From an uncultured bacterium (GTDB taxonomy: Bacteria > Desulfobacterota > Deferrimicrobia > J040): a stretch of 64,000 nucleotides of DNA. This document shows positions 306-31,994 of the stretch, one piece after another. The number at the start of each line of letters is the position of its first letter. Position 1 is the stretch's first letter. The stretch covers positions 7,530 to 71,529 of the forward strand of contig CAYSCN010000008.1 in the NCBI GenBank assembly GCA_964429585.1, read 5' to 3'. Under the pieces are notes generated by a model. It did not search any database. It saw only the letters and a list, made by a program, of their open reading frames with translations, and had not been told where the DNA came from. Both the position numbers and the translations under genes were made by a program.

Positions 306-1838
306 CTAACGCGAGTAACCCTTTCTCATCGCGCTTTTCATTTTTCGTGTAATCACGGGTAGTTCCCCTAACACGGTGAGGCCCAGATCTTTCTCGATCT
401 CTTCCCTGCGCCTTATTGAATCATCAAAGTATTCGGCAATAAACGCCAGGCCAACACCGAAAAATACGCTCACTATGAGACCAACCCCCGAAAATATCAC
501 GAGTTTCTTTATTTCCGGGAAGTCGGGGGGATACGCTGCATCGATCACTTTGATATATCCATCACCTCTCGTATTGTTGACTTTCAGGATACTGGCCCTG
601 CCAAGCTGCTCGCGGAGACTGCGGACTTCCCTCTCCCTGCTCTCTATCTCCTGAGTGAGCCTATTCAACTCGGAGAGGCTCTCCATTATTCTGTTTAGTT
701 TCCCTTTCGCCTCGTCGATCTTTTCGGATATATCCCTCTTCTCCGTCAGCAATTTCCGTTTCATCGATTCAAGAAATTCTTTCTGGCTCTCTATGCTCTT
801 TTCACGTCGATTGTCGCTCACCAGGGACTTCGGCGAATTAGCCCTTGCATCTTCGAGCCTCTTCTCGAGTTTTTCCACCTGCACTCGCAAGGCAACCACA
901 TACGGATGTTTGTCAGTGTGAGTCCTCCTGGCATTATTCAGCTCCGCTCGAAGCTCATTGAGGTCCTTCTCCAGTTTCTTCACGAGACTCGATTCCTGGG
1001 TCTTGTTCTCATCGCTGGCAGAAGACATAGGGGTGAACTCATAATTCCCGGTTGCCAGCTGATAATCAATTTTCTTCAACTTCCCGTCTATCTCATCATA
1101 TTTTGCCTCATATTCCTGTATTTTCTTCTTCTGTTCGCTCACTGCCTCCTCTATAGAAGTCGGAGAGACGACGTTCTCTCTTTTGTAAAATTCTCCAAGC
1201 GCTTTTTGAGCCTCTTTCAATTGTTTAAGAGAAGCTTTCAGCTTGGCTTCGACAAAATTGTAGGCGTTCTGGGTTTTTACAGAGAGATTGGTGTTCACCT
1301 CGTTTATGTACTTCTTGATGAATGTATTCACAATATTCGCTGCCTTTACCGAAGATGACGCACGCGCACTTATCTGTATGATATTGGTGCCTCTCAAAAT
1401 TTTGACGCTCGTTGCCTTGAGCAAATCGTCAATCGCGCTCTCCACCGGATTTATATCCGTTTTGAAAAGAGCCTTCTTTATCTTCTCGACCAGGGAGAGT
1501 TCCTTTGAGGATTCATCGAGCTTGAGTTCTTTTACGACCTGTTCGCATATTTTCCTGCTTCGCAGGATCTCCCTCTGGTTTTTCAGGAATACGCTCCTGT
1601 TTCTGAGGTCTGTTAGATAGGGCATCACATTTTTGGGAATTGCCGGAAGATTTATCACTATTTTCGCCTGCGCCTTGTATTTCAAGGGAAACAAGTATAA
1701 TCCGACGGCACAGGTCAACAGAACACTCAGCATCCCTGCGAGAAAAACCAGCTTTCTCGTCTTTACGATACTTATAAAAGTAGAAAGTATATCCTTGTCG
1801 TGTTCTTCGTAACTCATCTTATATCCTCCAGATTTCAT
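306..1838 (-). CDS. Polysaccharide co-polymerase (Wzz/EpsF-type chain-length determinant), two TM segments flanking a long coiled-coil periplasmic region
   Basis: N-terminal TM (LVFLAGMLSVLLTCAVGLYLF), ~350 aa coiled-coil-rich middle region, C-terminal TM (LVIFSGVGLIVSVFFGVGLAFIAEYF). Sits directly downstream of a BY-kinase gene. Possible true start at MSYEE. Confidence 0.75.
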   Translation of the reverse strand: MKSGGYKMSYEEHDKDILSTFISIVKTRKLVFLAGMLSVLLTCAVGLYLFPLKYKAQAKIVINLPAIPKNVMPYLTDLRNRSVFLKNQREILRSRKICEQVVKELKLDESSKELSLVEKIKKALFKTDINPVESAIDDLLKATSVKILRGTNIIQISARASSSVKAANIVNTFIKKYINEVNTNLSVKTQNAYNFVEAKLKASLKQLKEAQKALGEFYKRENVVSPTSIEEAVSEQKKKIQEYEAKYDEIDGKLKKIDYQLATGNYEFTPMSSASDENKTQESSLVKKLEKDLNELRAELNNARRTHTDKHPYVVALRVQVEKLEKRLEDARANSPKSLVSDNRREKSIESQKEFLESMKRKLLTEKRDISEKIDEAKGKLNRIMESLSELNRLTQEIESREREVRSLREQLGRASILKVNNTRGDGYIKVIDAAYPPDFPEIKKLVIFSGVGLIVSVFFGVGLAFIAEYFDDSIRRREEIEKDLGLTVLGELPVITRKMKSAMRKGYSR

Positions 1839-1870
1839 TGTTTACGCTAGAGCGCTCTTGTGTCGACTTT

Positions 1871-2626
1871 TTAGTATTTCGAGTAATACCTGTGATAGTC
1901 GCGATACACGTCTGGATTGGATTCGGAATAGTTCAGGACCACTCCGGCTATTTTCTCCTTGCCGATGAGTTTAACCGAGTTCTCCACGACGCTTTTTTTG
2001 GTGTGCCCGGCCTTTACAACGAGGATGATCCCATCGGCAACATCAGATATCACCAGCGGATCGGCAATTATACACGCTGGACCAGCATCTATGATGAAAA
2101 AGTACTCCTGATTGATCGAATTGATTGCGTCCCTCAGAGCAGTCATCTTTCGGGTGGTGATGTACACGCTGTCTCTATCAGATACAGGACCAGAAGGAAT
2201 GATCGATAGATTGGGTATGTTCGTTTTCAACATCACATCCGTGAGGGGAAGACCCTCTTCAAAAAAAGAGGACAACCCCTTCGCCTGCCTTCCAAGGCCA
2301 AACACTTCGTGTATCGAGGGTTTCCTCAGATCGAAGTCTACCAAAACCGTCTCCTTTTCAATTTCTGGTGCAATGGAGACCGCGAGGTTGGACGCCACGA
2401 AGGTCTTTCCCTCTTGTGGCATAGTGCTCGTCACCAGGATGGATCTCATTCCCTTTCTCTTTATCTGGCGAAGCAGGCCGAACCTCATGATTCTGAACTG
2501 CTCGGCCACAAATGAGTGAGGCGCCGAATAAGTGAACAAATTCCTCGTTGCCCCCTCAACGTTCACGACTTCCCGTCCATCACTGGTTTTCTTTTCAAGT
2601 TTCTGATCCTCTTTCAGAATTTTCAT
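1871..2626 (-). CDS. Tyrosine-protein kinase (BY-kinase, CpsD/EpsG-like), encoded separately from the PCP
   Basis: Walker A motif VTSTMPQEGKT and DxD-type Walker A'/B motifs. Tyrosine-rich C-terminal tail YRDYHRYYSKY typical of BY-kinases. Confidence 0.8.
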   Translation of the reverse strand: MKILKEDQKLEKKTSDGREVVNVEGATRNLFTYSAPHSFVAEQFRIMRFGLLRQIKRKGMRSILVTSTMPQEGKTFVASNLAVSIAPEIEKETVLVDFDLRKPSIHEVFGLGRQAKGLSSFFEEGLPLTDVMLKTNIPNLSIIPSGPVSDRDSVYITTRKMTALRDAINSINQEYFFIIDAGPACIIADPLVISDVADGIILVVKAGHTKKSVVENSVKLIGKEKIAGVVLNYSESNPDVYRDYHRYYSKY

Positions 2627-2796: not shown

Positions 2797-4368
2797 CTAC
2801 TCTATTCTCAGATTTTTGGGCGGGCTAGGGGTCTTCACTCCGCAAGGATATTCGTATGCGCCTACATCCAGATAGGTTATTGTACCCGCTCCCCTGTTTA
2901 CTTTGGCCGGTTCATCGCACCTTGGCTTTCCCTCGAGGTCTTTCTCCAGGTAGGAAGCTGCAAACATTCCGGCATCAATACAGGGGCTCGTCGCCAAAAG
3001 TCGGAAATTTCCACTTACAGGGTCCACAAATTGGGGATCACCAGTGATTGAATGAGTCCCCGGTCCCGACACGGCACCAGACCGATTAAAGTAGCAGTTG
3101 TAATCCACAGTCGTCCCGATTGAAGATGAGGTATCTATTACAACTGGTGATGCATTCCCGCTCACCACGATTATGTTGTTCAACAGCTCCGCGTTCGACG
3201 AATCATTGACCAAATGAGGACCGTCATAATCCGAATTCATATATAAAGTGTTGTTGTAAAACTTCACACCAGTAACGCCGCTGAAATAAAAGGGTGCTCT
3301 GTAACTGCCGTGAGACCCAATATTGTAAAAAAGATTACTATAATACATATGATCACTTGAAGGTCCTGAACCGTATCCGGGCTTCGCATTGCTTTCGAAT
3401 ATCCCAAATCCGGCGTTGTATATCACGTTTCCATACCACCTGTTCCTGGCATGACCTTCACCGTGGAGAATCCAGTAGTAACTGTAAATTGCTTCATCAG
3501 AAATATCGTGAATGGTGTTGCCATACACCTGAGAATCCTCATTCGAACTCAGCGCTATACCAGTGCCGCAATTGTATACATTGTTATACCTGATGATATT
3601 CTTATCACCACTCCCTATATCTATGCCCAAACCGTTTCCGTATGAAGTATTCCTTTCTACCAGAAGAAAATCTGCCTGCTCGCTGGCTATCCCGGCAAAG
3701 CTGGGGGAATTGTAAGTCGTGCATCCTCTTATCGTAACGTGGTTTGGTCTCCCACCATCCCACTGGTAAACATCAATTCCCGAATACGTGCTCGTATCGT
3801 GGACCACGCAGTTTTCGACGAGTATGTTGTTGACGTTACCTCTCAACTGTATCCCTTCTCCCCCCGTATCGTGAACCTCGAGCCCTATCAACTCAACAAA
3901 AGTAGCGGGATTACTCGTATTGCCCTCTTCATGTTCTATTAGAATCCCCCAGCCGGAGCTGTTGTTCCTTATTTCCAGGCCCTTTATCCTGACGTAATCC
4001 TGCCCACGGATGCTCAATATTGCGCCCCAGCCAGTTTTGCCACCTCCATCTATGATCACCTTCTGTCCCTGATAGGCCTGGACTGCAATATAACTTCCAG
4101 TTGTGCCGGAACGGTTTATGGAAACGATCTCGCTGTATGTCCCCCCCATCACGTTCAGCGTGTCTCCCGGATTCAACCTGTCGACTCCGTACTGTATGGT
4201 CCGCCAGGGAGCACTGATGGACCCGTCATTACTGTCGCTACCAGAGACTGAGACGTAGTACTCGGCAGCATCACCACTGGCGACCATCAAAAACACCAGG
4301 CACAAAATGATCGCGGAAAACATGAAGACTTTTCTAAAAATCACTGTTTCCCCAATCAGGACATCCAT
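2797..4368 (-). CDS. Secreted right-handed parallel beta-helix (pectate-lyase fold) protein, probable polysaccharide lyase/epimerase/hydrolase
   Basis: Signal peptide (MFSAIILCLVFLMVASGDAA; true start likely ~4323). N-terminal YYVSVSGSDSNDGS...PWRTIQ motif typical of beta-helix enzymes. Repetitive N/G-rich beta-helix coils. C-terminal tail KTPSPPKNLRIE. Confidence 0.7.
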   Translation of the reverse strand: MDVLIGETVIFRKVFMFSAIILCLVFLMVASGDAAEYYVSVSGSDSNDGSISAPWRTIQYGVDRLNPGDTLNVMGGTYSEIVSINRSGTTGSYIAVQAYQGQKVIIDGGGKTGWGAILSIRGQDYVRIKGLEIRNNSSGWGILIEHEEGNTSNPATFVELIGLEVHDTGGEGIQLRGNVNNILVENCVVHDTSTYSGIDVYQWDGGRPNHVTIRGCTTYNSPSFAGIASEQADFLLVERNTSYGNGLGIDIGSGDKNIIRYNNVYNCGTGIALSSNEDSQVYGNTIHDISDEAIYSYYWILHGEGHARNRWYGNVIYNAGFGIFESNAKPGYGSGPSSDHMYYSNLFYNIGSHGSYRAPFYFSGVTGVKFYNNTLYMNSDYDGPHLVNDSSNAELLNNIIVVSGNASPVVIDTSSSIGTTVDYNCYFNRSGAVSGPGTHSITGDPQFVDPVSGNFRLLATSPCIDAGMFAASYLEKDLEGKPRCDEPAKVNRGAGTITYLDVGAYEYPCGVKTPSPPKNLRIE

Positions 4369-5627
4369 TACTGCACGATTTTCAGGTTTTGAGGGGGACT
4401 TGGGGTCTTCCCCGTAGACCCTCCCGTAACAAGCGGGTGTGGATACTGAAACGGAGTCCAGGTGAATCCATCATCCTTTACTGTCGGAGCACGGAGGAAA
4501 TATTCCACTCCTTCCCTTATGCACCCACTACAGGTATCATAGTAAGTTCCGAAGCAGTTGCTGCCGCACCCTGTTTCACCCCAAACCCAGAAGTCCTGGG
4601 GTCCCTCACACACACCGTTAGTACATGGGTAATCGAGAACGTGAGAACAGTCGCCACAGCCTCCGCTCCCTGCGCCCCCATCGATCATGAGACCGAAGTA
4701 GATCCACCCATTTTTGAACTCGTACACGTTTCCGGTGGAAATCCCTGAACCCGATCGGATGAGAGCTCCACATACATTTGTGCTCTCGTATACATTGTTA
4801 TAATGCTCGAAGAGCCTGCCACCATGCGGAGTTCCAACAGGGTCGGCATACTTACAATAGTCATAACTCGGCCCATGTACATCGACACAAAGAGATGCAT
4901 TTCTAATCGTATTCTTGCGAAAAACAATCTTGGAATTGCAAAAGCCAGATATGGAATGGTAACAACCATCGAAAACATTGTCTTCGAAAAACAGCGCGTT
5001 CCTTGTTCCCATTGGGGGACGAGTTTTGTCATAATTACCGAAACCGTGTACGTAAAAGCCATACTCCCCGCTCCGGCACTTGAAAACACTGTGATGAACG
5101 ACCCCGTACCAACCCTCCAGAAGAACGATAGGTCCTCTCCCTGAGATAGTCAGGTGATGCCAGTTCAATTCTTTTCCGGGGCCGCTCGCTGGTCTCAGGG
5201 GCTCACTTGTGATATTTCTCGTCCTTGAAGCACCGTCTATCGACATGTAGGCGAGCTCGACGAGGTTCGATCCTGATGTCGGTACCTTAAGGTAAAAATC
5301 GGTTATCACGGTCTGCCCCTGTCCAGCACCGATGATTCTGACGTCCACGTCGGGACCCGTGTTGAGTACAACACCGTTTGTCCACGTGCAATTGCCGGCA
5401 GGGATATAAACAGTGCCTCCCCCTCCGGAAATTACCTTATCCACGGCGCTTTGGACGTCAGCCTCGGAACAGCTGTTTGCTGTAACGTCAAGAGCCAGTG
5501 CGCTCACTGTCATCGCTGTCAAAAGCAGAAAAGCAAATAAGATTATGTTTATTTTTCGAACGATCATTTCAATTTCCTTTCTCCGCAATTTACATGCCAC
5601 CGGGTTAGTCTCCCCTTTATCTGCCAA
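4368..5627 (-). CDS. Secreted Cys-rich right-handed beta-helix protein (pectin-lyase-fold), paralogous in architecture to the downstream gene
   Basis: Signal peptide MIVRKINIILFAFLLLTAMTVSALA (true start ATG ~5567, with AGGAAA RBS). Beta-helix-like repeats. Many Cys near the C-terminus. C-terminal tail KTPSPPQNLKIVQ. Confidence 0.65.
   Translation of the reverse strand: MADKGETNPVACKLRRKEIEMIVRKINIILFAFLLLTAMTVSALALDVTANSCSEADVQSAVDKVISGGGGTVYIPAGNCTWTNGVVLNTGPDVDVRIIGAGQGQTVITDFYLKVPTSGSNLVELAYMSIDGASRTRNITSEPLRPASGPGKELNWHHLTISGRGPIVLLEGWYGVVHHSVFKCRSGEYGFYVHGFGNYDKTRPPMGTRNALFFEDNVFDGCYHSISGFCNSKIVFRKNTIRNASLCVDVHGPSYDYCKYADPVGTPHGGRLFEHYNNVYESTNVCGALIRSGSGISTGNVYEFKNGWIYFGLMIDGGAGSGGCGDCSHVLDYPCTNGVCEGPQDFWVWGETGCGSNCFGTYYDTCSGCIREGVEYFLRAPTVKDDGFTWTPFQYPHPLVTGGSTGKTPSPPQNLKIVQ
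5585..5599 (-). promoter_or_regulatory. sigma54-type -24/-12 element TGGCATGTAAATTGC (GG-N10-GC), upstream of the beta-helix gene; identical 15-mer recurs at 25740-25754
   Basis: Minus-strand sequence reads CCCGGTGGCATGTAAATTGCGGAG. A perfect 22-bp palindrome (5671-5692) lies ~90 bp upstream like an enhancer/UAS. Caveat: only ~17 nt separate the GC element from the ATG. Confidence 0.4.
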
Positions 5628-5729: not shown

Positions 5730-7103
5730 TCACTTTACATCAAGTGGTATCATTACACTCCTCCTGCCAGTGTAATCGGGCGGGTTTTCAACGAAGGTTT
5801 TCAACTCCTCTTCTCCTACGAAGATTCTCACCCTCTTCCCCTCCGGAACATAGAACGTCATCCCGGCCAGCACTCCGACTCTGGGCGGCCTGAATCCTGA
5901 AACTGGATCTTCGATCCCCCGTATGTGTATCGTAACCTCTTCATCGGCCAATTGAAAGTCCCATTTCAGATATCTTCGGGCCACGTAATAATTCAAAAGA
6001 CTCGAAGTTTTTGCAACGTAGATATCTCCTCTCCTGTATTCCCTCGCCAACCTGCGAAGTGCCTTGATCGTTTCAGGACACATGTAACCTTCGCAATCGT
6101 CGTTCTTACCCAGGTGTGTATATACAATCGAGAAGCCCCCAACTTTTTTCAGACGTTCGAGAGTCCTCTCCGATAACACATAGGCAAGCCTCCTGTTGGT
6201 AGCTCCCGTTCCAACCCCACGCCAGTAGTTGTCGAACCTCATGAATTCAAAAATCTTCTGCCCATCGTCGAGCTCTCGGACCTGAACCAGATCGTTTGTT
6301 CCATGAAGCGCGTACTTCCTGCTACCCAGAATACCGAGCACGTTCTTGGCCACCTCTTTGGCTATATTCAACAATGAGTAAAAAGGGTGAACAGGGTCGT
6401 AAATGGAAGCAAAGGTTTCGAACCCAATGGGTGTTGCCTGGCCGATTACCATAGTTACCCTACCCAACCAGGCGAACCTGATCCCATACTTTATGGTCAT
6501 GTCTGCATGATAAGTGGAGGAACCCGGATGATCTCCTGTTCCAAACGTCACATCGTCCCCCATATTGCTCGGCGACCTGTCGTGATCCACCCACACCTCT
6601 AACTTCAGCCCCTTCCTCCTGAGCTCGCTGATCATTCTGAACGCATCCATTCGAGACAGGCCAGGTTTCTTCCCGTACGAGTGTATGATATCGATCGTGC
6701 CCTCCCTGATGAATTCGTCGATTACTCTCACGATCTTCCCGTCTCCACCAAAATACGAAATGGCCCCCGAAGCAGGCTCGAAAGGAAGGAAACTGTCTCC
6801 AATCTCGAGATTCACCCCCCTTCCCACGCTCGTCATCTCCGAACTGTTGAGAAATTTATGTATCTGGATAAATTCATCGAGCGTCTCCGTGTTGTCCGCA
6901 TCGTTCGAAATGGCGAGAGCCGCTCTGTAGGGAAACGGAAATTTCCTGAGCGAAACAGATACGGTGGTATCGTATGTATTATGATAGAGCGCATTTATTT
7001 TTCTTATTGGGGCAAAATAAAAGAAGTAAACGGTCAATAACACCGCTGTCAGCAAACCGGCCAACAACACCGAAATTCTTTTTCCATTCCTGTTTAAACC
7101 CAT
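5730..7103 (-). CDS. Membrane-anchored hypothetical protein of the polysaccharide locus (possibly esterase/deacetylase-like; family not recognised)
   Basis: Single N-terminal TM (ISVLLAGLLTAVLLTVYFFYF), then a large soluble domain. In operon context with GTs. No confident motif match. Confidence 0.45.
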   Translation of the reverse strand: MGLNRNGKRISVLLAGLLTAVLLTVYFFYFAPIRKINALYHNTYDTTVSVSLRKFPFPYRAALAISNDADNTETLDEFIQIHKFLNSSEMTSVGRGVNLEIGDSFLPFEPASGAISYFGGDGKIVRVIDEFIREGTIDIIHSYGKKPGLSRMDAFRMISELRRKGLKLEVWVDHDRSPSNMGDDVTFGTGDHPGSSTYHADMTIKYGIRFAWLGRVTMVIGQATPIGFETFASIYDPVHPFYSLLNIAKEVAKNVLGILGSRKYALHGTNDLVQVRELDDGQKIFEFMRFDNYWRGVGTGATNRRLAYVLSERTLERLKKVGGFSIVYTHLGKNDDCEGYMCPETIKALRRLAREYRRGDIYVAKTSSLLNYYVARRYLKWDFQLADEEVTIHIRGIEDPVSGFRPPRVGVLAGMTFYVPEGKRVRIFVGEEELKTFVENPPDYTGRRSVMIPLDVK

Positions 7104-7149: not shown

Positions 7150-8283
7150 TCAGGCAAATTTCTCTTTCCCGTTCGAAAGAGCCTTTCGATAGATATTTAC
7201 AGTGTTTTCTGCAATGCTGTCCCAAGACAGATCTCCAATCGCCTTTTCAAAAGCTTTCTCTCCCATTGCCATCCTTTTTTCACGGTCCCGGAGAAGGTCG
7301 ATTATAGCCTCGGCGAGTTTGACACTGTCCCTGGGGGGAACGACGTATCCCGTTTCTCCGTGGTCGACCACTTCCGGAAGGCTCCCCACCTCCGTCACCA
7401 CAACTGGTTTCCTGAAAGCATATGCAAGGGGAAGGACTCCGCTCTGCGAAGCTTCTATGTAAGGAAGCGCCACGATACTCGCCTCCTGAAACAATCTTGC
7501 CACCGTTTCATTCGATATGTAGTCGTTGTAAACGACAAAACGATCTTTATTGACCATCATTTTCAAGTACCGGGACATGTCCTCGCCTCTACCAGCTATC
7601 ACTATTTTGGCATTTGGAACTGCCTCGGTTATCAGGGGCTCTGCTTCTATAAGATATTGCAATCCCTTGTATTCCCATATTCTGCCGAAAAACAGGATAT
7701 TTCCCTCGTCTTCTTCAATCTCGTCCTTAATATATCTTGTGTAAATGGAATTTATTCCTCTGTAAATGACGTTTATATCTTCAGGTGGCTTTGCTACCCT
7801 CTCCAGCATCTGCTCCTTGAGTTTCTGCCCGTGCACTATTATTTGATCTGCCAGCCGAATCGCCAATTTGTGAGTGAAAACGGATATTTTTTTGGATTCC
7901 TCGTCACCTATGTGAAGCTCCACGTCGTGAATCGTGGTGACGAGCGGATACTTTCTCAAATACGGCAAAAAAATGTTGAACCAGGGATCCCCCCTCTGTA
8001 TGTGTATCACATCGGGTGAAAACCTCTCTATTTCCTTAACTATTCTCCACATCTGCAGGAGATTTACAGGATACCGCATACGCGATCTCTTGAACGGCTT
8101 CAGCTTGACTTCGGGGTGGATAACATTCCCGAATCTCTGAGCCTGCTTTTCTGGAATCATCAACATCAATTCCACTTTTCTGCTCAGCGCCTCGGACAGT
8201 TCGAGCGTGTATTCGATATTCGAAAAGGCCAGCATCAAAACTCGCATATTTTTATATTCTCCTGCATATTTATTGATTTTCAA
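7150..8283 (-). CDS. Glycosyltransferase family 4 (GT-B, retaining)
   Basis: C-terminal GT4 motif EASQSGVLPLAYAFRKPVVVTEVGSLPEVV...GETGYVV. Confidence 0.8.
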   Translation of the reverse strand: MKINKYAGEYKNMRVLMLAFSNIEYTLELSEALSRKVELMLMIPEKQAQRFGNVIHPEVKLKPFKRSRMRYPVNLLQMWRIVKEIERFSPDVIHIQRGDPWFNIFLPYLRKYPLVTTIHDVELHIGDEESKKISVFTHKLAIRLADQIIVHGQKLKEQMLERVAKPPEDINVIYRGINSIYTRYIKDEIEEDEGNILFFGRIWEYKGLQYLIEAEPLITEAVPNAKIVIAGRGEDMSRYLKMMVNKDRFVVYNDYISNETVARLFQEASIVALPYIEASQSGVLPLAYAFRKPVVVTEVGSLPEVVDHGETGYVVPPRDSVKLAEAIIDLLRDREKRMAMGEKAFEKAIGDLSWDSIAENTVNIYRKALSNGKEKFA

Positions 8284-25739: not shown

Positions 25740-25754
25740 ACAATTTACATGCCA
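25740..25754 (-). promoter_or_regulatory. Second copy of the 15-mer; sigma54-type element TGGCATGTAAATTGT (GG-N10-GT) ~75 nt upstream of the priming transferase gene
   Basis: ACAATTTACATGCCA on + strand is identical to 5585-5599 apart from one flanking base. Located in the 296-bp intergenic region between the OMP and PGT genes. Confidence 0.4.
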
Positions 25755-25958: not shown

Positions 25959-27125
25959 TCAATATGTCTTCATTAGCACAAACCCAATGGCCACGCTGTT
26001 GATAGTTATGTCGCTCCCTATGTCCGTTTTAGCGTCCTGCTCCGATCTGACTCCTGAGATGAAAACTGATAGGGTCTTCATGAGCATGTATTCAACTCTG
26101 ACGTTGAAATACGTCAAAAGCAGGTCCTCGGTACTGTCCAGCGACCTGTGCTTCCTCAAACTGCCTCTCATGAGAAAGGATACCTTCCTGGAAATCCACT
26201 TGTAAGTGGCTGCAAACCCATCCGTCTTTGTTGTCCTCCCGAAGATTCCTCCCCCAGAGAAATAACGCCACGCTGAAACTCTGAGAAAACTCTTTTCTGA
26301 AGGTGTGATTTCCGTGGCAATACTCCCTGAAAACTCCGTGGTCGACTTGTTGCTCTCCTCAAGCAATCTCGTAACTCCAGTGGTCAGTATATAGGTAACC
26401 GAAGGTGAATACATATAATTCAAGAATAATGAGGCCGTGTAAGTGTCGGTGTCGATTCCATCGTCGTAATCGGTTGTGGAGTACCCGAACGACAGTCCTT
26501 CCTTGAACCTTTCCGTTCCGGAATACGTAACCCTGCCAGAAAAACTTTGCGTCTTTGAATCCGATACCCCTACATCTTCACTGTATTGAAGTGTCGTATA
26601 CATCCCCGTTGCAAACAGTGTCAATCTCGGTGACATTTTGAAAGTAATCGACGACTCACCAGAAAGAGTGTAGTGGTCGCTCCGCCTGGTGATTTCGGTC
26701 TGACTCCCCGTGGCGCTCTCCAGGGGAACTGTTTCGGAAATCCCAAGGCCAGGTGTGAAAACGTAGGTCGTCTTGAACGAAGCGCCGAGTCTGTCCGTGA
26801 AATCCCTGTCATATCTAACGGATACGTCACTTGAATTGGCTACTCCGTTTAGATGTTCATTTTTCGTGTAGTATTCCCCCGTTACCGAACCCACCAAATA
26901 TAGAGCGTCTCTTTTTCCTGTAACGTCCACTCGTAGTACGGGCTTGACCACTGTAAACACGTCTTCTTTTCCCGGATTTCTTTCGCTTTCTATGTTGTCC
27001 GACCAGTTCAAACTCACCGAAATCGATGGTGTTATCTTCGAGTCATATGAAACAGCCGAACCCACGTTGAAGAAAACGAGAAAAAACACCCCAACCAAAC
27101 AAAAAGTTACTTTTTTTCTGACCAA
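25959..27125 (-). CDS. Outer-membrane beta-barrel protein of the polysaccharide locus
   Basis: Signal peptide. Alternating hydrophobic beta-strand pattern throughout. C-terminal ...GFVLMKTY ending in aromatic residue (OMP signature). Confidence 0.6.
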   Translation of the reverse strand: MVRKKVTFCLVGVFFLVFFNVGSAVSYDSKITPSISVSLNWSDNIESERNPGKEDVFTVVKPVLRVDVTGKRDALYLVGSVTGEYYTKNEHLNGVANSSDVSVRYDRDFTDRLGASFKTTYVFTPGLGISETVPLESATGSQTEITRRSDHYTLSGESSITFKMSPRLTLFATGMYTTLQYSEDVGVSDSKTQSFSGRVTYSGTERFKEGLSFGYSTTDYDDGIDTDTYTASLFLNYMYSPSVTYILTTGVTRLLEESNKSTTEFSGSIATEITPSEKSFLRVSAWRYFSGGGIFGRTTKTDGFAATYKWISRKVSFLMRGSLRKHRSLDSTEDLLLTYFNVRVEYMLMKTLSVFISGVRSEQDAKTDIGSDITINSVAIGFVLMKTY

Positions 27126-27138: not shown

Positions 27139-27828
27139 TCACGGAATTATTATTATATCGCCCGGCTTGAGGTAGACGTTCTGACTCAACTCACGAGACT
27201 TTACAATTTTGTAGTAATCGATATCCATTTTCTTTTGATACGATCCATTCGACCGGATTAGAACTATTTTTGACGGAGACGCAAACACCGTGAACCCCCC
27301 CGCCATAGAAATCGCCTGAAGGAGGGAAATTTTTTCTTTAAGAATATACATCCCAGGCTTGGCCACCTCACCCATGATGTAAAACTTAGGATAGTTGACC
27401 TCCTTGACCACCACAGTGACAACGGGTTCAATGATGAACTCCTTCAATCTTACTTCTATCAACTTTCGAAGCTCCTCGGTTGTAAATCCGGATGCGGTTA
27501 CGTCCTGAATGAGCGGAAGGGAAATCTTACCATCAGGCCTGACTGTAACATCCTGAGTCAACTCTTCATTGTTCCAGACAGAAATGTGAAGTACGTCGCC
27601 AGGGCTGATTCTGTAAGGTTCGGTGTCATCGGAATTACCAGCACCGCTTCTTTCAATCATAGCACGTTTCCCTTTTTCCTTAGCAGAAACCGGCTCTTTT
27701 TGTATGGGCGTTGTCACACGACAGGCGGCCAGCACCATAAACCCCGCCACGATGAACACGATTTTCATAAAAAATTTCCCTTTGTAGCTTTTCATCCTTA
27801 CTCCCTTCGCCCCCGACCGTGGAAACAA
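27139..27828 (-). CDS. Polysaccharide export protein, small Wza/EpsA-like periplasmic lipoprotein (Poly_export + SLBB)
   Basis: Lipobox ...FMVLAAC. YRISPGDVLHISVW Poly_export motif. PGDIIIIP C-terminal SLBB-like. Likely start MKIVFIVAGF (~27768). Confidence 0.8.
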   Translation of the reverse strand: MFPRSGAKGVRMKSYKGKFFMKIVFIVAGFMVLAACRVTTPIQKEPVSAKEKGKRAMIERSGAGNSDDTEPYRISPGDVLHISVWNNEELTQDVTVRPDGKISLPLIQDVTASGFTTEELRKLIEVRLKEFIIEPVVTVVVKEVNYPKFYIMGEVAKPGMYILKEKISLLQAISMAGGFTVFASPSKIVLIRSNGSYQKKMDIDYYKIVKSRELSQNVYLKPGDIIIIP

Positions 27829-28317
27829 TCAGAGGTAATATTTTGGAATGTTCAGCTTGATGTTGGCGGAAACGCTATTCAGAAGAAGCGTTACCCTCTC
27901 ATCTCCAGAGAGATACCCTTCAAAAACGACCTCTAGATCCTTGAACATCCCTCTTTTTATTGCGATCCTCTCATTTCTGGTGAACCTTCGTTTCTTGTTA
28001 ACCATGTGTATGAACCCGTCTCTTTCCCTGTCTCTTATATGCTTTACTATCTCAGGTTCCACCTCGACAGGTCCCGAGCCGAAGTCTATGAACCCACCAA
28101 CTCCCCTTGTGTACTTGATTTTGTGATAATTTTTCTCAAGTTCTGTCTCTACAAAAATGTATCTCGGAAACAACGGTTCAATAACCGTGAAAACGGCGTT
28201 TCTACGTATCGTGGTTTTCTTCAAAAGCGGGAGATAACAATTAATCTTTCCCTCAGTGAGGTTCTTCACAACTTTCAGCTCTTCCTTGGGCTTTGTGAAA
28301 ACAAGATAATAGGGCAT
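27829..28317 (-). CDS. NusG-paralog, RfaH/UpxY-like operon-specific transcription antiterminator
   Basis: NGN domain YYLVFTKPKEELKVVKNLTEGKINCYLPLL...VIEPLFPRYIFVE closely parallels RfaH (WYLLYC...VNCLAPMI...SEPLFPNYLFVE). C-terminal KOW-like region. GGAGGA RBS. First gene of the long minus-strand operon. Confidence 0.8.
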   Translation of the reverse strand: MPYYLVFTKPKEELKVVKNLTEGKINCYLPLLKKTTIRRNAVFTVIEPLFPRYIFVETELEKNYHKIKYTRGVGGFIDFGSGPVEVEPEIVKHIRDRERDGFIHMVNKKRRFTRNERIAIKRGMFKDLEVVFEGYLSGDERVTLLLNSVSANIKLNIPKYYL

Positions 28318-28334: not shown

Positions 28335-28346
28335 TAGGCTACCGCC
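28335..28346 (-). promoter_or_regulatory. ops-like element GGCGGTAGCCTA (E. coli ops = GGCGGTAGCGTG) in the mRNA-sense strand 25 nt upstream of the RfaH-like gene start; preceded by hairpin GGGGAA-N7-TTCCCC (28348-28366)
   Basis: Reverse complement of + 28335-28346 (taggctaccgcc). 10/12 identity to ops including the invariant GGCGGTAG core and T11. Non-template orientation is correct for RfaH-type recruitment. Confidence 0.35.
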
Positions 28347-28413: not shown

Positions 28414-29904
28414 TCAGGCGTCCTCGACAATACCGCACTCTTTCATCTTGTAAAGGAGTGCTTTGTAAGAAATATCCAGAATCTTCGCCGCTTTTCTTCT
28501 GTTCCAGCGCACGTGGTTCAAAACCTTTTCGATAACCAGTCGCTCTGCTCTCCTGGAGGCAGAACGTGATATTTCCTTCAAAGGAACTTTGCCCGAAGCG
28601 AGATCGATGTTCTTTATCAGGAAATCTATGTCCTGAAAACTCCCACCGTTCCCCGGCCTCGAAATTTCCCTTTCAATTCTCACAGCTGCGCTTCCACCGG
28701 CAGATCCTGCACCCCTCGCTGAAGCGTAAAACTTCTCTTCGGTGCTTTTTTTCATAAGCTCCGTGAAAGCAACGGACTCAGAACCCATAATGACTATGCG
28801 CTTAACGTAATTTTCGAGCTCTCTGATATTCCCGGGCCACGAATATTCCAAGAAGCTGTTGATGAGAGAATCGGATATAACTTGTCCCTCCTTGTTGTAC
28901 ATGAAAGAGTATTTCTTCAGGAAATAATCGACAAGCAGAGGAATGTCTTCCTTCCTCTCTCTCAGAGGTGGAAGGTGTATGTTGACGACATTCAGGCGGA
29001 AATAGAGATCTTCTCTGAAATTCCCTTCTCTTACCGCTTCTTGTAAGTCTCTGTTTGTCGCGCTCACGATACGAACGTCCACTTTGACGTCTCTTTCGCT
29101 ACCCACAGGCGAAAACACCCCGTCCTGAACGACCTGGAGCAATTTCGACTGTATTCTGATAGGCATCTCGGATATCTCATCGAGGAATATAGTCCCCATT
29201 GAGGCAATCTCGAACTTCCCTCTCTTTTTTTTGTAAGCGCTCGTGAACGCGCCTTTTTCGTACCCGAAAAGCTCACTTTCCAGAAGATTATAAGGTATTG
29301 CAGCACAATTGACTTTAACGAATTTTTTGTCGGATCTCCTGGACAACTTGTGGATAGCCCTCGCGACAAGGTCCTTACCAGTTCCACTCTCTCCGGTAAT
29401 CAGAACCGTTATGTCGGTACCGGCCACCTGATCCACTATCGCCTTTATCTTCTTCATTGACTCATAGCGAGAAAAAACGAGGTTGTATTCGTTTTCCGGG
29501 TCCGTCAATGTTTTCAACTCTTCCAGTTCTCTCTTGTCTCCCACCACGTTTATCGCCCTGTGTATCCTGACCAGTAGCTCATCGTATTCGAACGGCTTTT
29601 TCAGGTAATCTGTGGCCCCAAGCTTCATCGCTCTCACAGCCTCTTCGATTTCAGATTGAGCGGAAATCAAAACTATCGGGACGTATCTGTTCCCATTCAA
29701 GAAAATAGGTATCAGGTCGATGCCATTCCCGTCAGGAAGAAAAATATCGAGTATCACGATATCAGGCTTTTCCTCGAAGAAAGTCGTTTCTGCCTCTAAC
29801 TTGGTCGTCGAAACAACCACGTTCATTCCATGCTGAAGAAGAAATCTCTTCGTCATGTTGAGGAATGAAGGGTCATCATCTATCAAAAGAACTTTGTTCC
29901 CCAA
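28414..29904 (-). CDS. sigma54-dependent response regulator (NtrC family: REC + AAA+ sigma54-activation + Fis-type HTH), PrsR-like
   Basis: REC domain (LLIDDD...ILDIFLPDGNG). AAA+ with GESGTGKD, ESELFGYEKGAFTSA (GAFTGA-type) and arginine-finger region. C-terminal HTH ...NRRKAAKILDISYKALLYKMKECGI. TTG start with AGGAGGGAG RBS. Confidence 0.9.
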   Translation of the reverse strand: MGNKVLLIDDDPSFLNMTKRFLLQHGMNVVVSTTKLEAETTFFEEKPDIVILDIFLPDGNGIDLIPIFLNGNRYVPIVLISAQSEIEEAVRAMKLGATDYLKKPFEYDELLVRIHRAINVVGDKRELEELKTLTDPENEYNLVFSRYESMKKIKAIVDQVAGTDITVLITGESGTGKDLVARAIHKLSRRSDKKFVKVNCAAIPYNLLESELFGYEKGAFTSAYKKKRGKFEIASMGTIFLDEISEMPIRIQSKLLQVVQDGVFSPVGSERDVKVDVRIVSATNRDLQEAVREGNFREDLYFRLNVVNIHLPPLRERKEDIPLLVDYFLKKYSFMYNKEGQVISDSLINSFLEYSWPGNIRELENYVKRIVIMGSESVAFTELMKKSTEEKFYASARGAGSAGGSAAVRIEREISRPGNGGSFQDIDFLIKNIDLASGKVPLKEISRSASRRAERLVIEKVLNHVRWNRRKAAKILDISYKALLYKMKECGIVEDA

Positions 29905-30135: not shown

Positions 30136-31281
30136 TCACGGAACGGGAATGGTGAAAGACACAGTCGTCCCTTTTCCGGGCTCGCTTTCTATCGCGAGCT
30201 CGCCGTTTTGAACTTCCACCAGTTTCTTGCATATGGAAAGCCCCAGCCCGACAGTTCCTATCCCCTCCCTCTTGAATATCATCGGGTCACTCGTGAGAAT
30301 CTCTCTTATTTTTTCCTTTGGCATACCACATCCCTTGTCTGAAACCGAAATCAACGCTTTTCCATTTTCAGCATGAGAAACAGACACCACTATTTCCGAA
30401 CCCGCAGGTGAAAATTTTATTGAATTCACCATCAGGTTGTCGAGAATCTGCCCTACTTTCAGTCTATCCGCGTAGACGAGCACTTTGTCCGAAACATTCG
30501 TCCTCCTGATTTTTATGTTCTTCATCTCCACGTAAGGAGCCAGAAAGTCTATGCATTCGTCTATCAGCTCTCCTATGTCGAATGTCGTGGAGTTGAGATT
30601 TATCGTCCCCTGTTCCACGGCATGATAGTCCAGGAAAGACTCAATCATCACAAGTGCTCTCTTTAGACACCTTCTTCCTTCCACAAATATGCTCATCTCG
30701 TCTTCTGTAAGCTTGTGGCTGCATGATTCCCCTATCATCTGATGATACCCGTTCAGAACCGTCAAAAGGGTTTTCAGGTCATGGCTTGCCGTGGAAATCA
30801 TGAAAGACTTGAATGACGATAGTTTCTCCACCTCTCGGTTCTTTTCCTCCAGCTCCTTGACGAGCTTCTTAAGCTTTCTCTCGTTTTCCTTTCTCTGTCT
30901 CTCGGCTCGTAGCTTCTCATAGGCTCTTCTAAGAGAATGCAGAATGATCTCTGGCTCAAACGGCTTCATGATGAAGTCATACGCTCCGAGCTTGAGGGCT
31001 CTAACTGCCGACTCGAGTGTCGCATAACCTGTGATGACTATAACAGGAATATCGGGTCTGGTCCTGCCAACCTTCCCCAGAAGATCGAGACCGGACTCAC
31101 CGTTGAAGTTTATATCAGTTATCATGATAATACTTTTTCTTTTTTTCTTTATGAAATCGTAAGCATCTCCCGGATTTATGAATTTTTCCACATTAAACCC
31201 TTTTGACGCCACGATTTTCGCCAGCGACTCGAGAAACTTCTCATCGTCCTCAACTATCACGACAGTCGTCCTTCTCATCAA
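30136..31281 (-). CDS. Hybrid histidine kinase (N-terminal REC + HisKA + HATPase_c), cytoplasmic
   Basis: REC (VVIVEDDE...IIMITDINFNGESG). H-box SHDLKTLL. N/G boxes (NLMVNSIKFS, DKGCGMPKEKI, GTVGLGLSICKKLV). No TM. Confidence 0.8.
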   Translation of the reverse strand: MMRRTTVVIVEDDEKFLESLAKIVASKGFNVEKFINPGDAYDFIKKKRKSIIMITDINFNGESGLDLLGKVGRTRPDIPVIVITGYATLESAVRALKLGAYDFIMKPFEPEIILHSLRRAYEKLRAERQRKENERKLKKLVKELEEKNREVEKLSSFKSFMISTASHDLKTLLTVLNGYHQMIGESCSHKLTEDEMSIFVEGRRCLKRALVMIESFLDYHAVEQGTINLNSTTFDIGELIDECIDFLAPYVEMKNIKIRRTNVSDKVLVYADRLKVGQILDNLMVNSIKFSPAGSEIVVSVSHAENGKALISVSDKGCGMPKEKIREILTSDPMIFKREGIGTVGLGLSICKKLVEVQNGELAIESEPGKGTTVSFTIPVP

Positions 31282-31994
31282 CTCTCCCCCTCAACAGGTA
31301 TGATTACCCTGAAAATCGCCCCTTCATTCCCTTCTTCGTAAGCTATTTCTCCGCCTGCAGCGTCGACTATGTTCCGGCATATCCACAGCCCGAACCCTCT
31401 TCCCTCCCCTTTTTTGGAGGGCACAGGTTCCTCGAAGAGCCTGCCTCTCAGGTCACTGCTCAAGCCGCCACCTGAATCTTCAACTTCAATTCGGGCCAAT
31501 TTTCCGTCCGACTTCGCCCTCACCTCTATCCAGCCTCCGCTCGAAGTTGCATCACAGGCATTTGAAACAAGATTCGACAAAACCTGTCTGAGAGAAGAGC
31601 GGGAAATAGAAAGCGGTGTTCTGCCATTCCCCACAGCCACACCAAAAGCAACCCCTTTCGACTCCGCTATCTTTCTGTAGATGTTTTCCATGAACCGTGC
31701 CTCTTCCTCCAGAATGGCTATTTCGCGTCCATTCCAGTTGAACCCGCCACCGAATGAAAACTCATCTATTGTCTCCTCAATTCTCTTGACTTCCTCATAA
31801 ATGGCTCTCAAATTTTCAAGGGCAACATCCGTTTTCCTCCGTCCTCCTCCATACTTCTTCATTTCTTCGGTAACTATGTAAATGTAATTTTTAATTGTCC
31901 CAAGAGGCGTTCTTATCTCGTGTAACAACGACCTGTAATATTTCTCCCTTTCACGCAATATATAGAGCTCCTCTATTAGCTTCTCAACTTTCAT
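31278..31994 (-). CDS. Soluble histidine kinase (HisKA + HATPase_c), translationally coupled to the hybrid kinase
   Basis: H-box LHEIRTPLGTIKNY. ATPase boxes (LSNLVSNACDAT, DSGGGLS, GRGFGLWICRNIV). ATGA overlap with the downstream gene. Confidence 0.75.
   Translation of the reverse strand: MKVEKLIEELYILREREKYYRSLLHEIRTPLGTIKNYIYIVTEEMKKYGGGRRKTDVALENLRAIYEEVKRIEETIDEFSFGGGFNWNGREIAILEEEARFMENIYRKIAESKGVAFGVAVGNGRTPLSISRSSLRQVLSNLVSNACDATSSGGWIEVRAKSDGKLARIEVEDSGGGLSSDLRGRLFEEPVPSKKGEGRGFGLWICRNIVDAAGGEIAYEEGNEGAIFRVIIPVEGES

Follow-up and report, generated by a model that had tools for sequence, protein, structure and literature searches.

The window, the whole 64 kb stretch of DNA analysed, carries at 306-31994 a genuine 31-kb surface-polysaccharide gene cluster of the Wzx/Wzy type, and all features described here lie on its minus strand. 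An ORF check found every one of the 27 minus-strand ORFs at 306-31994, and no gene runs on into bases 1-305. Gene content was assigned with NCBIfam and Pfam models, and two weak family calls were strengthened by running family profiles against the sequences in the PDB. The array is real and had been described almost wholly correctly in the initial annotation, whose single Wzx/Wzy super-locus is borne out by the NCBIfam and Pfam matches.

Assembly genes comprise a polysaccharide co-polymerase (PCP)/chain-length determinant (306..1838; TIGR03007 136 bits, below the cutoff of 279), a BY-kinase split from the PCP (1871..2626; TIGR01007 122 bits, above the cutoff of 108), a Wzx/MOP flippase (8336..9850; NCBIfam and JGI gene call), a Wzy/O-antigen-ligase-type polymerase (10892..12376; the JGI gene call matches Pfam Wzy_C; TIGR03097 60 bits) and three GT4 glycosyltransferases. 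GT4_a (7150..8283) and GT4_b (9840..10847) were assigned with NCBIfam, and GT4_c (12369..13532) is of a type that accompanies the cassette described below, with members in 21 of the 28 long loci. Export genes encode an outer-membrane beta-barrel (25959..27125; Pfam BBP2_2 31.3 bits, cutoff 23.7; N-terminal match to TIGR03016, 37.5 bits) and a small Wza/OPX-like lipoprotein with an LAAC lipobox (27139..27828; TIGR03027 161.8 bits, cutoff 180; EpsY 138 bits).

Among the precursors there is probably a 2,3-diamino uronic sugar, made via an NDP-sugar 6-dehydrogenase of the uronic acid-making kind (13628..14935; TIGR03026 431 bits, above the cutoff of 190) and a WbpB/E/D-like trio: a GFO/IDH/MocA-family UDP-sugar 3-dehydrogenase (WbpB-like, 23511..24554; UDP-GlcNAc 3-dehydrogenase model 169 bits, cutoff 450), a DegT-type sugar aminotransferase (WbpE-like, 21855..22967; PseC 284 bits and several DegT-family models) and a hexapeptide-repeat N-acetyltransferase (WbpD-like, 22964..23521; NeuD/PglB/VioB family 93 bits). 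The lipid-linked repeat unit would be started by a small monotopic phosphoglycosyl transferase (PGT; 24538..25662; Pfam Bac_transf 185 bits), and assembly and export would be completed by the three GT4s, Wzx, Wzy, PCP and BY-kinase, small OPX lipoprotein and outer-membrane barrel.

The catalytic part of the PGT spans aa 164-355 and follows a degenerate GGDEF domain (aa 1-160; 25183-25662). These N-terminal 160 aa have no Pfam match even at E=10; a 5-sequence profile of the region searched against the PDB retrieved the GGDEF structure 3ign (1.2e-9), with GGDEF proteins making up 18 of the top 20 matches, so that the GGDEF-like receptor domain annotated earlier as fused to the priming enzyme is real. 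The RxxD I-site (R71, D74) is invariant in the profile, and we propose that the domain, its I-site intact, is catalytically dead.

Two secreted beta-helix enzymes had also been annotated. The assignment holds for the right-handed beta-helix, pectate-lyase-like protein at 2797..4368 (PelN 56.7 bits; NosD and beta_helix models), but the secreted protein at 4368..5627, whose probable true start is the ATG at 5567, gives only a faint beta-helix signal (Pfam E=0.007). The two share a C-terminal tail, KTPSPPxNLxI. A neighbouring 457-aa protein with one N-terminal TM helix (5730..7103) matched no family in NCBIfam or Pfam. No exosortase or PEP-CTERM tail was found in the whole 64 kb window, as stated before; the proposed likeness to XrtA/PEP-CTERM loci stands at the level of related families only, since every XrtA-system model in NCBIfam scored under its curated cutoff.

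Regulators and promoter-like sites

The RfaH-like factor with its ops-like site and the sigma54 activator with two kinases, all annotated previously, are present. The first kinase (31278..31994) is soluble and has a HisKA and HATPase core (NCBIfam AtoS 95 bits; PrsK model 83.8 bits, below the cutoff of 300), with no sensor domain found, and the second (30136..31281) is a receiver-histidine kinase hybrid, with a FixJ-type receiver at aa 1-151 (NCBIfam) and histidine kinase models at aa 130-380. The activator (28414..29904) is an NtrC-type sigma54 enhancer-binding response regulator (AtoC 419 bits, NtrC 398 bits; PEP_resp_reg 387 bits, below the cutoff of 503). Next to it lies the RfaH-like NusG paralogue (27829..28317; TIGR01955 116 bits, cutoff 144.5; UpxY 64 bits), whose start codon is 18 nt downstream of the ops-like element GGCGGTAGCCTA (28335..28346; 11 of 12 positions match). 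Ops-like matches are not above chance window-wide, nor is GGCGGTAGCCTA on its own; in locus L003 the NusG paralogue is preceded, at a distance of 31 nt, by a similar element, GGCGGGAGCGT.

Sigma54-type promoters had been proposed as well; three candidate sites were located next to genes, two of them well placed. The -24/-12 site TGGCATGTAAATTGT (25740..25754), whose -12 element is GT, not GC, precedes the start of the PGT by about 78 nt, and TGGCATGTAAATTGC (5585..5599; 1 mismatch, canonical GG-N10-GC) lies just upstream of the probable true start at 5567; both correctly placed sites contain the 15-mer GTGGCATGTAAATTG. Sigma54-like sites are not enriched across the window, however (41 found versus 35.9 expected), and the third site, 29941-29955, ahead of the activator gene, coincides in part with a sigma70-like promoter that is close to perfect (29929-29956; TTGGCA-16-TATAAT) in the leader of that gene; sigma70 is the better reading here.

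The CE4-like, ATP-grasp and PSD-like cassette

Within the locus lies a block of decoration genes, three of which form a conserved cassette. The first encodes a cytoplasmic CE4-superfamily hydrolase of 310 aa, a probable N-deacetylase (14932..15864; family HMM 2e-113), which reached only E=0.007 in Pfam and whose family profile retrieved the polysaccharide deacetylase 3rxz from the PDB (7e-23). Residues E118, H122, H126, R157, D219 and H253 are invariant across the family, which does not conserve the motif-1 Asp pair known from classic CE4 enzymes. The second encodes a membrane pyruvoyl decarboxylase of the phosphatidylserine decarboxylase (PSD) family (15925..16722; Pfam PS_Dcarbxylase 142 bits; best NCBIfam equivalog 167 bits, below the cutoff of 183) with three N-terminal TM helices. 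Its AF2 model (pLDDT 90) has the PSD fold, the sole significant fold matches being E. coli PSD structures; D99, H151 and G232-S233 are invariant, and residues assigned to self-cleavage and catalysis are conserved. The third, AGc (16766..17944), is an ATP-grasp ligase by its AF2 model (pLDDT 93) and the conserved partner of the PSD-like gene by linkage. No close solved or characterised relative of AGc was found, the best fold matches being biotin carboxylases and L-amino-acid ligases at identities of at most 20%; many homologues carry the automated JGI name 'D-aspartate ligase'.

Two accessory ATP-grasp paralogues, AGb (18050..19294; PRK12767-type models 58-60 bits; 31% identity to AGc) and AGa (20572..21825; 54-59 bits; 28% identity to AGc), complete a set with pairwise identities of 25-31%; AGa is rare in related loci. 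Between them lies a FemAB-family (Acetyltransf_6) transferase (19445..20575; Pfam FemAB 59.7 bits, Acetyltransf_6 55.3 bits; TIGR03019 111 bits, below the cutoff of 260), of 343 aa from its likely true start, as in the JGI gene call. TM helices are absent from AGc and from the CE4-like and Fem-like proteins.

The CE4-like, AGc and membrane PSD-like genes recur as a cassette in the polysaccharide loci of bacteria from at least 15 phyla. Of the 73 loci that could be evaluated, 66 have an AGc-type gene immediately upstream of the PSD-like gene and in the same orientation (median gap 45 nt), and 5 more have one within a few kb; exact look-up found the same pair in three further homologues. Such loci occur in Planctomycetota, Acidobacteriota/Aminicenantes, Chloroflexota, Actinomycetota, Ignavibacteria, Calditrichota, Entotheonella, Kiritimatiellia, Nitrospirota, KSB1, Latescibacterota, Saccharibacteria and others, and across loci the identities of the AGc and PSD-like proteins to the window copies co-vary (r=0.40, p=5e-4). 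Among the 28 long loci, each with at least 8 kb of flank, a CE4-like hydrolase accompanies the pair in 21, usually flanking it, and is missing within 10 kb in about a quarter; 14 carry Fem-like genes (L036 has a tandem run of four) and 6 carry formyltransferase genes. Both kinds encode amine-acting enzymes and often lie downstream of the PSD-like gene, as do radical-SAM genes.

Linkage of the PSD-like gene to ATP-grasp and polysaccharide genes, seen in 66 of the 73 evaluable loci across many phyla, argues that the ATP-grasp/Fem-like/PSD-like/CE4 block is part of the polysaccharide locus and not housekeeping; none of the 87 loci contains an ORF bearing the CDP-alcohol phosphatidyltransferase (pssA) motif. 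The initial annotation had singled out the ATP-grasp triad plus the PSD-like enzyme as the unusual unit, but only 3 of the 28 long loci have more than one ATP-grasp gene, and what is conserved is AGc with the PSD-like and CE4-like genes. Its view that the block is not standard in described loci agrees with the literature searched, in which neither a description of the three-gene cassette nor a paper combining the elements of the block was found.

Proposed chemistry of the cassette

Pyruvoyl decarboxylases need a free alpha-amino group to form the Schiff base, so the amino acid would have to be tethered through its side chain. This requirement makes unlikely the alpha-amide on a uronate, later decarboxylated, that had been suggested earlier. 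A uronate as acceptor would agree with the uronate dehydrogenase gene that adjoins the cassette in the window, but a sugar amine is the acceptor suggested by the deacetylase that is the conserved partner in the cassette.

Acceptor, amino acid, step order and lipid-linked timing are all inferred, and with a sugar amine as acceptor we propose the following scheme. The cassette would act on the lipid-linked unit at the cytoplasmic face of the membrane, where the CE4-like enzyme would remove an N-acetyl group. To the amine freed in this way AGc would couple Asp or Glu by its side-chain carboxyl, activated as an acyl-phosphate. Loss of the alpha-carboxyl, catalysed by the pyruvoyl enzyme, would then yield a beta-alanyl or gamma-aminobutyryl group ending in a free primary amine. 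At this locus the Fem-like transferase, together with AGa and AGb, may extend or cap that amine with further amino acids.

The chemistry proposed for AGc would resemble that of the peptidoglycan D-Asp ligase on a lysine epsilon-amine; D-Asp ligase is an ATP-grasp enzyme whose beta-aspartyl-phosphate acylates an amine (PMC4155827). Pairing of a deacetylase with a Fem-like acyltransferase has a precedent, HfsH with HfsK, in the c-di-GMP-controlled EPS pathway of the Caulobacter holdfast (PMC5362036). The literature search yielded no paper on glycans that bear N-beta-alanyl or GABA-type substituents.

A polysaccharide locus with a deacetylation-ligation-decarboxylation tailoring cassette is the best overall explanation, and we give it about an even chance of being right. 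The probable outcome of the cassette is a sugar bearing a side chain that ends in an amine. A 'Deltaproteobacteria' MAG holds the nearest named relative of a housekeeping protein, and we propose that the host is an uncultured diderm whose product is a Wzx/Wzy-dependent extracellular or capsular polysaccharide.

Gene content and regulation of the polysaccharide locus

The minus-strand gene array at 306-31994 consists of 27 ORFs, all on that strand and separated by short gaps, and no gene runs on from it through bases 1-305. NCBIfam and Pfam scans bore out nearly all elements named in the initial annotation, and the locus described there is real. In transcription order, it opens with regulatory genes for a soluble histidine kinase, a receiver-kinase hybrid, an NtrC-type sigma54 activator and an RfaH-like NusG paralogue, which are followed by a small Wza-like lipoprotein, an outer membrane barrel, a monotopic priming phosphoglycosyl transferase (PGT, 24538..25662) and a GFO/hexapeptide/DegT trio (WbpB/D/E-like). 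Next come the ATP-grasp ligase AGa (20572..21825), a FemAB-family protein, the paralogous ligases AGb (18050..19294) and AGc (16766..17944), a PSD-family protein (15925..16722), a 310-aa CE4-like protein (14932..15864) and an NDP-sugar dehydrogenase. The genes for GT4_c (12369..13532), Wzy, GT4_b (9840..10847), Wzx, GT4_a (7150..8283) and a 457-aa protein without family match lead to the end of the array, which encodes two secreted proteins (one a clear beta-helix, one a faint one), a BY-kinase and a PCP. Identical proteins in the same gene order were found on two independent metagenome contigs. The remainder of the window carries a Liv-type ABC transporter, acyl-CoA ligases, a second NtrC system, a P-type ATPase and similar genes, and its RluA-family housekeeping protein is 71% identical to a homologue of a 'Deltaproteobacteria' MAG.

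The PGT matched Bac_transf with 185 bits and TIGR03025 with 226 bits, so that the priming step of the Wzx/Wzy pathway is present, as are a Wzx flippase and a Wzy polymerase (MOP/Polysacc_synt and Wzy_C families). The BY-kinase exceeded the TIGR01007 cutoff (122 bits against 108), and PCP and Wza-like (OPX) matches were obtained as well. The locus is a member of the Wzx/Wzy-dependent polysaccharide class. With XrtA/PEP-CTERM EPS loci, which carry PrsK/PrsR, an EpsA-like exporter, a Fem-like protein and a deacetylase, it shares related families for PCP, BY-kinase, OPX, outer membrane protein, Fem-like protein, sigma54 regulator and kinase; however, all seven models of that system scored below their cutoffs (score/cutoff: PCP 136/279, BY-kinase 157/231, Fem-like protein 111/260, exporter 162/180, regulator 387/503, kinase 84/300 and outer membrane protein 37.5/91), and the closeness to exosortase-type EPS loci claimed at first was not borne out. 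No exosortase (EpsH/XrtA) was detected among ORFs of at least 100-120 aa in the 64-kb window, and no [VIL]PEP motif in the C-terminal 35 aa of the window ORFs, in agreement with the initial annotation. The locus is not demonstrably an XrtA/PEP-CTERM system.

The 457-aa protein (5730-7103) has one N-terminal TM helix and matches neither Pfam nor NCBIfam; its sole homologue among the 87 fetched loci lies on L002, a contig of the same organism. That it might be a second CE4-like protein was ruled out, since neither BLASTP nor the family HMM revealed any relation. Both adjacent secreted proteins end in the 11-residue tail KTPSPP(K/Q)NL(R/K)I (2797-2832 and 4368-4406, minus strand), which is 82% identical between them, with about 78% identity of the DNA over 74 aligned columns that include the tail; the two proteins are otherwise unrelated, and no further ORF of the window or of the 87 loci carries a tail of this type. 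The tail may serve both proteins as a tag for sorting or attachment, or it may be what is left of an FN3 domain. Immediately upstream of the locus, an FG-GAP-repeat protein is encoded at 32329-33729, and the ORF at 33723-34322 matches NCBIfam selenoprotein models over their DUF2284 domain; a search of this ORF for in-frame UGA (selenocysteine) read-through gave nothing clear.

Residues 1-160 of the PGT had no Pfam match even at E=10, and the same domain is fused to PGTs in four related loci. A profile built from the five sequences matched the GGDEF structure 3ign among PDB sequences at 1.2e-9, with 18 GGDEF structures in the top 20. The GG(D/E)EF motif is lost (EEGTI in the window copy, GWYD-type sequence in the relatives) and the substrate-binding segment is deleted, and the RxxD I-site is kept, with R71 and D74 invariant and aligned with RQSD of 3ign, five residues before the GGDEF position. 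Homology, loss of the catalytic motif and an invariant, correctly spaced I-site together support the assignment of the PGT N-terminus as a degenerate, receptor-type GGDEF domain, as had been proposed from the sequence; its I-site suggests that it would bind c-di-GMP. The fusion suggests c-di-GMP control of repeat-unit synthesis at the first committed step. A comparable combination is described in the available part of a report on the Caulobacter holdfast, where the deacetylase HfsH and the Fem-like N-acyltransferase HfsK act in one c-di-GMP-responsive EPS pathway (PMC5362036). There, the c-di-GMP effector is the acyltransferase itself, whereas the candidate receptor here is the degenerate GGDEF domain on the PGT, and that part of the text mentions neither an ATP-grasp enzyme nor a decarboxylase (PMC5362036).

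The RfaH-like protein scored 116 bits against the TIGR01955 cutoff of 144.5 and reads clearly as a specialised NusG paralogue. An ops-like element, GGCGGTAGCCTA (28335-28346, 11/12 match), lies 18 nt before its start, and a similar element, GGCGGGAGCGT, lies 31 nt before the first NusG paralogue of the related locus L003; neither is above chance alone, and ops pattern counts across the window were not above chance either. Likewise, sigma54-like matches were not enriched across the window (41 found, 35.9 expected). Two of them lie in leaders on the right strand: TGGCATGTAAATTGT (25740-25754) about 78 nt before the PGT gene, and TGGCATGTAAATTGC (5585-5599) immediately ahead of where the 4368-5627 ORF probably begins. 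The two sites have a 15-mer in common; a matching site before the PGT gene of L003 was not found. A near-consensus sigma70 promoter (TTGGCA-16-TATAAT, 29929-29956, minus strand) precedes the sigma54 activator gene and overlaps a -24/-12-like site, which is better read as this sigma70 promoter. A perfect AT-rich 22-bp palindrome, GTTATTTCATTAATGAAATAAC (about 5670-5692, minus strand), lies just past the stop of the 457-aa ORF; the sigma54-like site at 5585-5599 follows about 70 nt downstream. The palindrome may bind an activator or form a weak hairpin.

The CE4-like/ATP-grasp/PSD-like cassette

The PSD-like protein matched PF02666 with 142 bits against a gathering score of 22, and D99, H151 and the self-cleavage site F231-G232-S233 were invariant among 30 homologues. 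From established knowledge of PSDs, we take D99, H151 and the Gly-Ser site to serve catalysis and self-cleavage. When its AF2 model (pLDDT 90) was compared with the PDB by Foldseek, the only significant matches were E. coli PSD structures (6l06 and 7cn*, E ~1e-6, probability 1.00); phmmer gave no match among PDB sequences. By sequence, motifs and predicted fold, the protein belongs to the PSD family. It is like housekeeping Psd in Pfam family, predicted fold, Gly-Ser motif, Asp and His residues and membrane association, and unlike it in having three extra N-terminal TM helices and in scoring below all NCBIfam equivalog cutoffs (best NF003685, 167.4 bits against 183).

The AF2 model of AGc (pLDDT 93) has the ATP-grasp fold; in Foldseek it matched biotin carboxylase and L-amino-acid ligases (1e-17 to 1e-19), and these matches are generic (biotin carboxylase, RizA, BL00235 and PylC, at most 20% identity). 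Many of its homologues carry the automated JGI product name 'D-aspartate ligase'. The homologue P0230, 48% identical over 99% of the query, is annotated as belonging to a MAG of a Candidatus Aenigmarchaeota archaeon; the family of this ligase may thus extend to archaea. The CE4-like protein matched Pfam Polysacc_deac_1 at only E=0.007, and its family profile matched the polysaccharide deacetylase 3rxz among PDB sequences at 7e-23, as well as PuuE, H. pylori PgdA (HpPgdA) and chitin deacetylases. HxxxH (H122, H126), R157 and H253 are invariant in the family; the motif-1 Asp pair is present in the window copy (HDVD) and is not family-wide. No TM segment was predicted in AGc, AGa, AGb, the CE4-like or the Fem-like protein.

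Homologues of the PSD-like protein number in the thousands. Three that are distant (51-57% identical) were retrieved by exact-sequence look-up, and all have an ATP-grasp gene directly upstream in polysaccharide loci (3/3). A scan with the subfamily alignment, restricted to one genome per species, recovered 572 PSD-like relatives, the best 80 of which came from at least 15 phyla; every hit came from a MAG. Neighbours were typed by tblastn with all window proteins. The upstream ATP-grasp gene was always an orthologue of AGc, and never of AGa or AGb. It was adjacent and on the same strand in 66 of the 73 loci that could be evaluated (median gap 45 nt), a few kb away at most in five more, and missing in two. 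AGc and PSD-like identities co-vary over the loci (r=0.40, p=5e-4).

All neighbouring ORFs were then clustered for the 28 loci with at least 8 kb of flank. A CE4-like family (305-580 aa variants) was present in 21 of them, mostly flanking the AGc/PSD-like pair, and so was a GT4 of the GT4_c type (21/28); Fem-like genes occurred in 14 and a formyltransferase in six. The initial annotation had singled out the ATP-grasp triad plus the PSD-like enzyme. Two or more ATP-grasp genes were found in only 3/28 long loci, and the conserved unit is instead AGc with the PSD-like and CE4-like proteins. The linkage of the decoration block to polysaccharide genes, as the initial annotation had it, was confirmed by the AGc/PSD-like adjacency and by the position of the cassette in polysaccharide operons.

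Further neighbours were seen in individual lineages. A gene for a B12-binding radical-SAM protein lies directly downstream of the PSD-like gene in 13/28 long loci, mostly from Chloroflexota and Actinomycetota, and is absent from the window, which suggests a lineage-specific further modification of the cassette product; one such protein (485 aa, CxxxCxxC) is encoded at L039:12727-14184, and it occurs in 30 other loci as well. In a Sphaerobacter MAG, the next genes after the ATP-grasp/PSD-like pair are a tandem of four Fem-like ones (L036:10791-15547), recalling stepwise FemX/A/B bridge building. At L006:10860-16830, the pair is followed by a KS-AT polyketide synthase and then by a PP-binding/aminotransferase/thioesterase protein, which hints at lipid or polyketide extension of a cassette-made handle. 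A Pirellulales MAG holds two PSD-like copies, one in a full cassette (L052:10001-10795) and one standing alone beside PLP-enzyme and YggS-like genes (L043:2640-3434); the latter, one of the two loci without AGc, is a recent paralogue 74% identical to the cassette copy.

Such an isolated copy in a non-glycan context is a point in favour of the alternative that an ordinary PSD has come by chance to lie in polysaccharide operons, where it would supply phosphatidylethanolamine for the membrane or as a phosphoethanolamine donor, with the ATP-grasp genes unrelated. The strong Pfam match, the conserved residues assigned to catalysis, the predicted PSD fold and a best equivalog score only slightly under its cutoff agree with this explanation. 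It is nevertheless highly improbable, given that one specific ATP-grasp orthologue is the neighbour in nearly all loci from many phyla, that the gene sits between glycan-tailoring genes in tightly spaced operons, that an ORF with a pssA-type (CDP-alcohol phosphatidyltransferase) motif was found in none of the 87 loci, and that no phosphoethanolamine-transferase family is among the HMM matches of the window proteins. Housekeeping Psd and the PSD-like protein thus differ in context too, the latter being nearly always beside an ATP-grasp ligase in glycan loci, and on sequence grounds it fails the tests for a housekeeping equivalog both by score and by gene context. We consider with good confidence that the cassette is a coupled glycan-tailoring unit.

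In the searched literature, no coupling of a PSD-family gene with an ATP-grasp gene was described for polysaccharide loci; ATP-grasp and PssA are named together in the lipocone paper, but in an unrelated operon. The CE4-like/ATP-grasp/PSD-like cassette is therefore undescribed in that literature, as had been supposed for the decoration block, and adds a variant to glycan tailoring.

Proposed chemistry and its implications

In pyruvoyl decarboxylases of the PSD, AdoMetDC and PanD class, the pyruvoyl carbonyl reacts with the substrate's free alpha-amino group to form a Schiff base, and in phosphatidylserine the amino acid is held through its side chain. The initial annotation had proposed an amino acid amide on a uronic-acid-containing polymer, possibly decarboxylated later; read literally, the amino acid would be linked by its alpha-amine to a uronate and then decarboxylated by the PSD-like enzyme. 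In its favour, the locus encodes uronate synthesis and ATP-grasp ligases, O-antigens are well known to contain uronic acids amidated with amino acids, and AGa or AGb could form amides of this kind without involvement of the PSD-like enzyme. An N-acylated alpha-amine, however, cannot form the Schiff base with a pyruvoyl group, and the PSD-like protein keeps the invariant Gly-Ser motif (G232-S233), the source of that group in PSD-family enzymes; an amino acid alpha-amide-linked to uronate therefore cannot be its substrate, and we regard this proposal as scarcely credible. From the earlier interpretation, a real, polysaccharide-linked decoration block that is undescribed in the searched literature remains, while its conserved unit, its closeness to exosortase loci and its chemistry had to be revised.

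A phosphoserine diester, the closest mimic of phosphatidylserine, was rejected as substrate, because it is carboxylates that ATP-grasp enzymes activate, and a transferase of the CDP-alcohol or HKD type is missing. We consider it about evenly balanced whether the amino acid is tethered through its side chain and then decarboxylated. The conserved cytoplasmic deacetylase partner, and the amine-acylating enzymes that often follow the pair, led us to infer three steps on the lipid-linked repeat unit. An amino sugar of that unit would be N-deacetylated; AGc would couple Asp by its beta-carboxyl, or Glu by its gamma-carboxyl, to the amine thus exposed; and alpha-decarboxylation would then leave a beta-alanyl or gamma-aminobutyryl group. 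As proposed, the substrate would resemble that of housekeeping Psd in being membrane-bound and in carrying a side-chain-tethered alpha-amino acid. The new primary amine could be lengthened here by the Fem-like transferase and AGa or AGb, and formylation or some other change could follow in other lineages. As a specific product, beta-alanyl or GABA on a sugar amine is possible, though doubtful.

The closest chemically workable form of the earlier idea is one in which AGc activates the C6 carboxylate of a uronic acid and joins it to an amino acid side chain, either through the epsilon (Lys), delta (Orn) or gamma (Dab) amine or, as an ester, through the Ser hydroxyl, whereupon the PSD-like enzyme decarboxylates the free alpha end to a cadaverine-, putrescine- or diaminopropane-type amide, or to an ethanolamide after an O-to-N acyl shift. 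This leaves the alpha-amine free, as the pyruvoyl enzyme needs. The NDP-sugar 6-dehydrogenase gene lies two genes downstream of the PSD-like gene, separated from it by the CE4-like gene, and a diamino uronic acid is implied by the WbpB/E/D-like trio; yet NDP-sugar dehydrogenase homologues occur within 10 kb in only 10/80 related loci, against 21/28 long loci for the CE4-like family, and the conserved deacetylase would be left without a role. As far as the accessible text describes it, the C. jejuni HS:2 capsule offers a precedent, in which the ATP-grasp C-terminal part of Cj1438 amidates glucuronate with ethanolamine-P or serinol-P and so adds a small amine-containing group to a residue of the polysaccharide while this is being assembled (PMC11800379). 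In that system, unlike the cassette, the amine is first made as a free phosphorylated molecule and then ligated to the uronate, the ligase is TupA-like, a type of ATP-grasp to which AGc does not belong, and fused to a GT2, and the same text mentions no PSD-family enzyme (PMC11800379). On balance, we consider a uronate acceptor unlikely. The literature search yielded nothing relevant on ATP-grasp enzymes with uronic acid amides in O-antigens, nor on beta-alanyl O-antigens.

The cassette might also act on a target other than the exported polymer, such as a glycolipid or lipid anchor for which the co-travelling GT4 would be responsible, or a soluble nucleotide-sugar precursor. The GT4_c type accompanies the cassette in three quarters of the long loci, GT4_a and GT4_b (and not GT4_c) weakly match glycolipid synthases, some related loci have few export genes within 10 kb, and ATP-grasp enzymes can act on UDP-sugars, for example in UDP-yelosamine synthesis (PMC11257628). 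A soluble nucleotide-sugar substrate fits poorly with a decarboxylase that is integral to the membrane, and the cassette lies inside PGT/Wzx/Wzy/PCP operons in the window and in many relatives; such a target appears improbable.

The proposed route has parallels in known pathways. Butirosin biosynthesis follows the logic proposed for the cassette: BtrJ, an ATP-grasp enzyme, tethers glutamate by its gamma-carboxyl, and BtrK alpha-decarboxylates it to a GABA unit. There, glutamate is borne by an acyl carrier protein, BtrK is a PLP-dependent enzyme and the product is an antibiotic side chain. In peptidoglycan synthesis, the ATP-grasp D-aspartate ligase (Aslfm/AslA), to which AGc is likened by fold class and automated homologue names, joins an amino acid by its side-chain carboxyl, via beta-aspartyl-phosphate, to a free amine of a lipid- or nucleotide-linked glycan precursor (PMC4155827). 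Fem-type aminoacyl-tRNA transferases add further residues to the free amine (PMC4155827), and both families are represented in the locus. Unlike peptidoglycan side chains, the context here is a Wzx/Wzy polysaccharide rather than murein, the acceptor is probably a de-N-acetylated sugar rather than lysine, and a decarboxylase is coupled to the ligase, whereas peptidoglycan pathways are without a pyruvoyl decarboxylase.

We tentatively propose, at somewhat less than even confidence, that PSD-family enzymes have a second, non-phospholipid job. Together with a CE4-like deacetylase and an ATP-grasp ligase dedicated to the task, these enzymes would turn N-acetyl groups of lipid-linked sugars into amine-terminated handles of the beta-alanyl/GABA type (or polyamine type), which Fem-like tRNA-dependent transferases, formyltransferases or radical-SAM enzymes would elaborate. 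The resulting 'peptido-polysaccharides', decorated with peptides or amines, would form a widespread class present in at least 15 phyla. If this is true, on-glycan amino-acid ligation followed by pyruvoyl decarboxylation would be a new type of glycan-tailoring reaction and the first non-lipid role for the PSD family, and the annotation 'phosphatidylserine decarboxylase' on the inspected homologues, several of which are so named at source, would be misleading. The surface polymer would then carry a primary amine and hence a positive charge, with bearing on adhesion, biofilm cohesion, cationic-peptide resistance and phage recognition, and the amine would be a natural chemical handle for more peptide extension.
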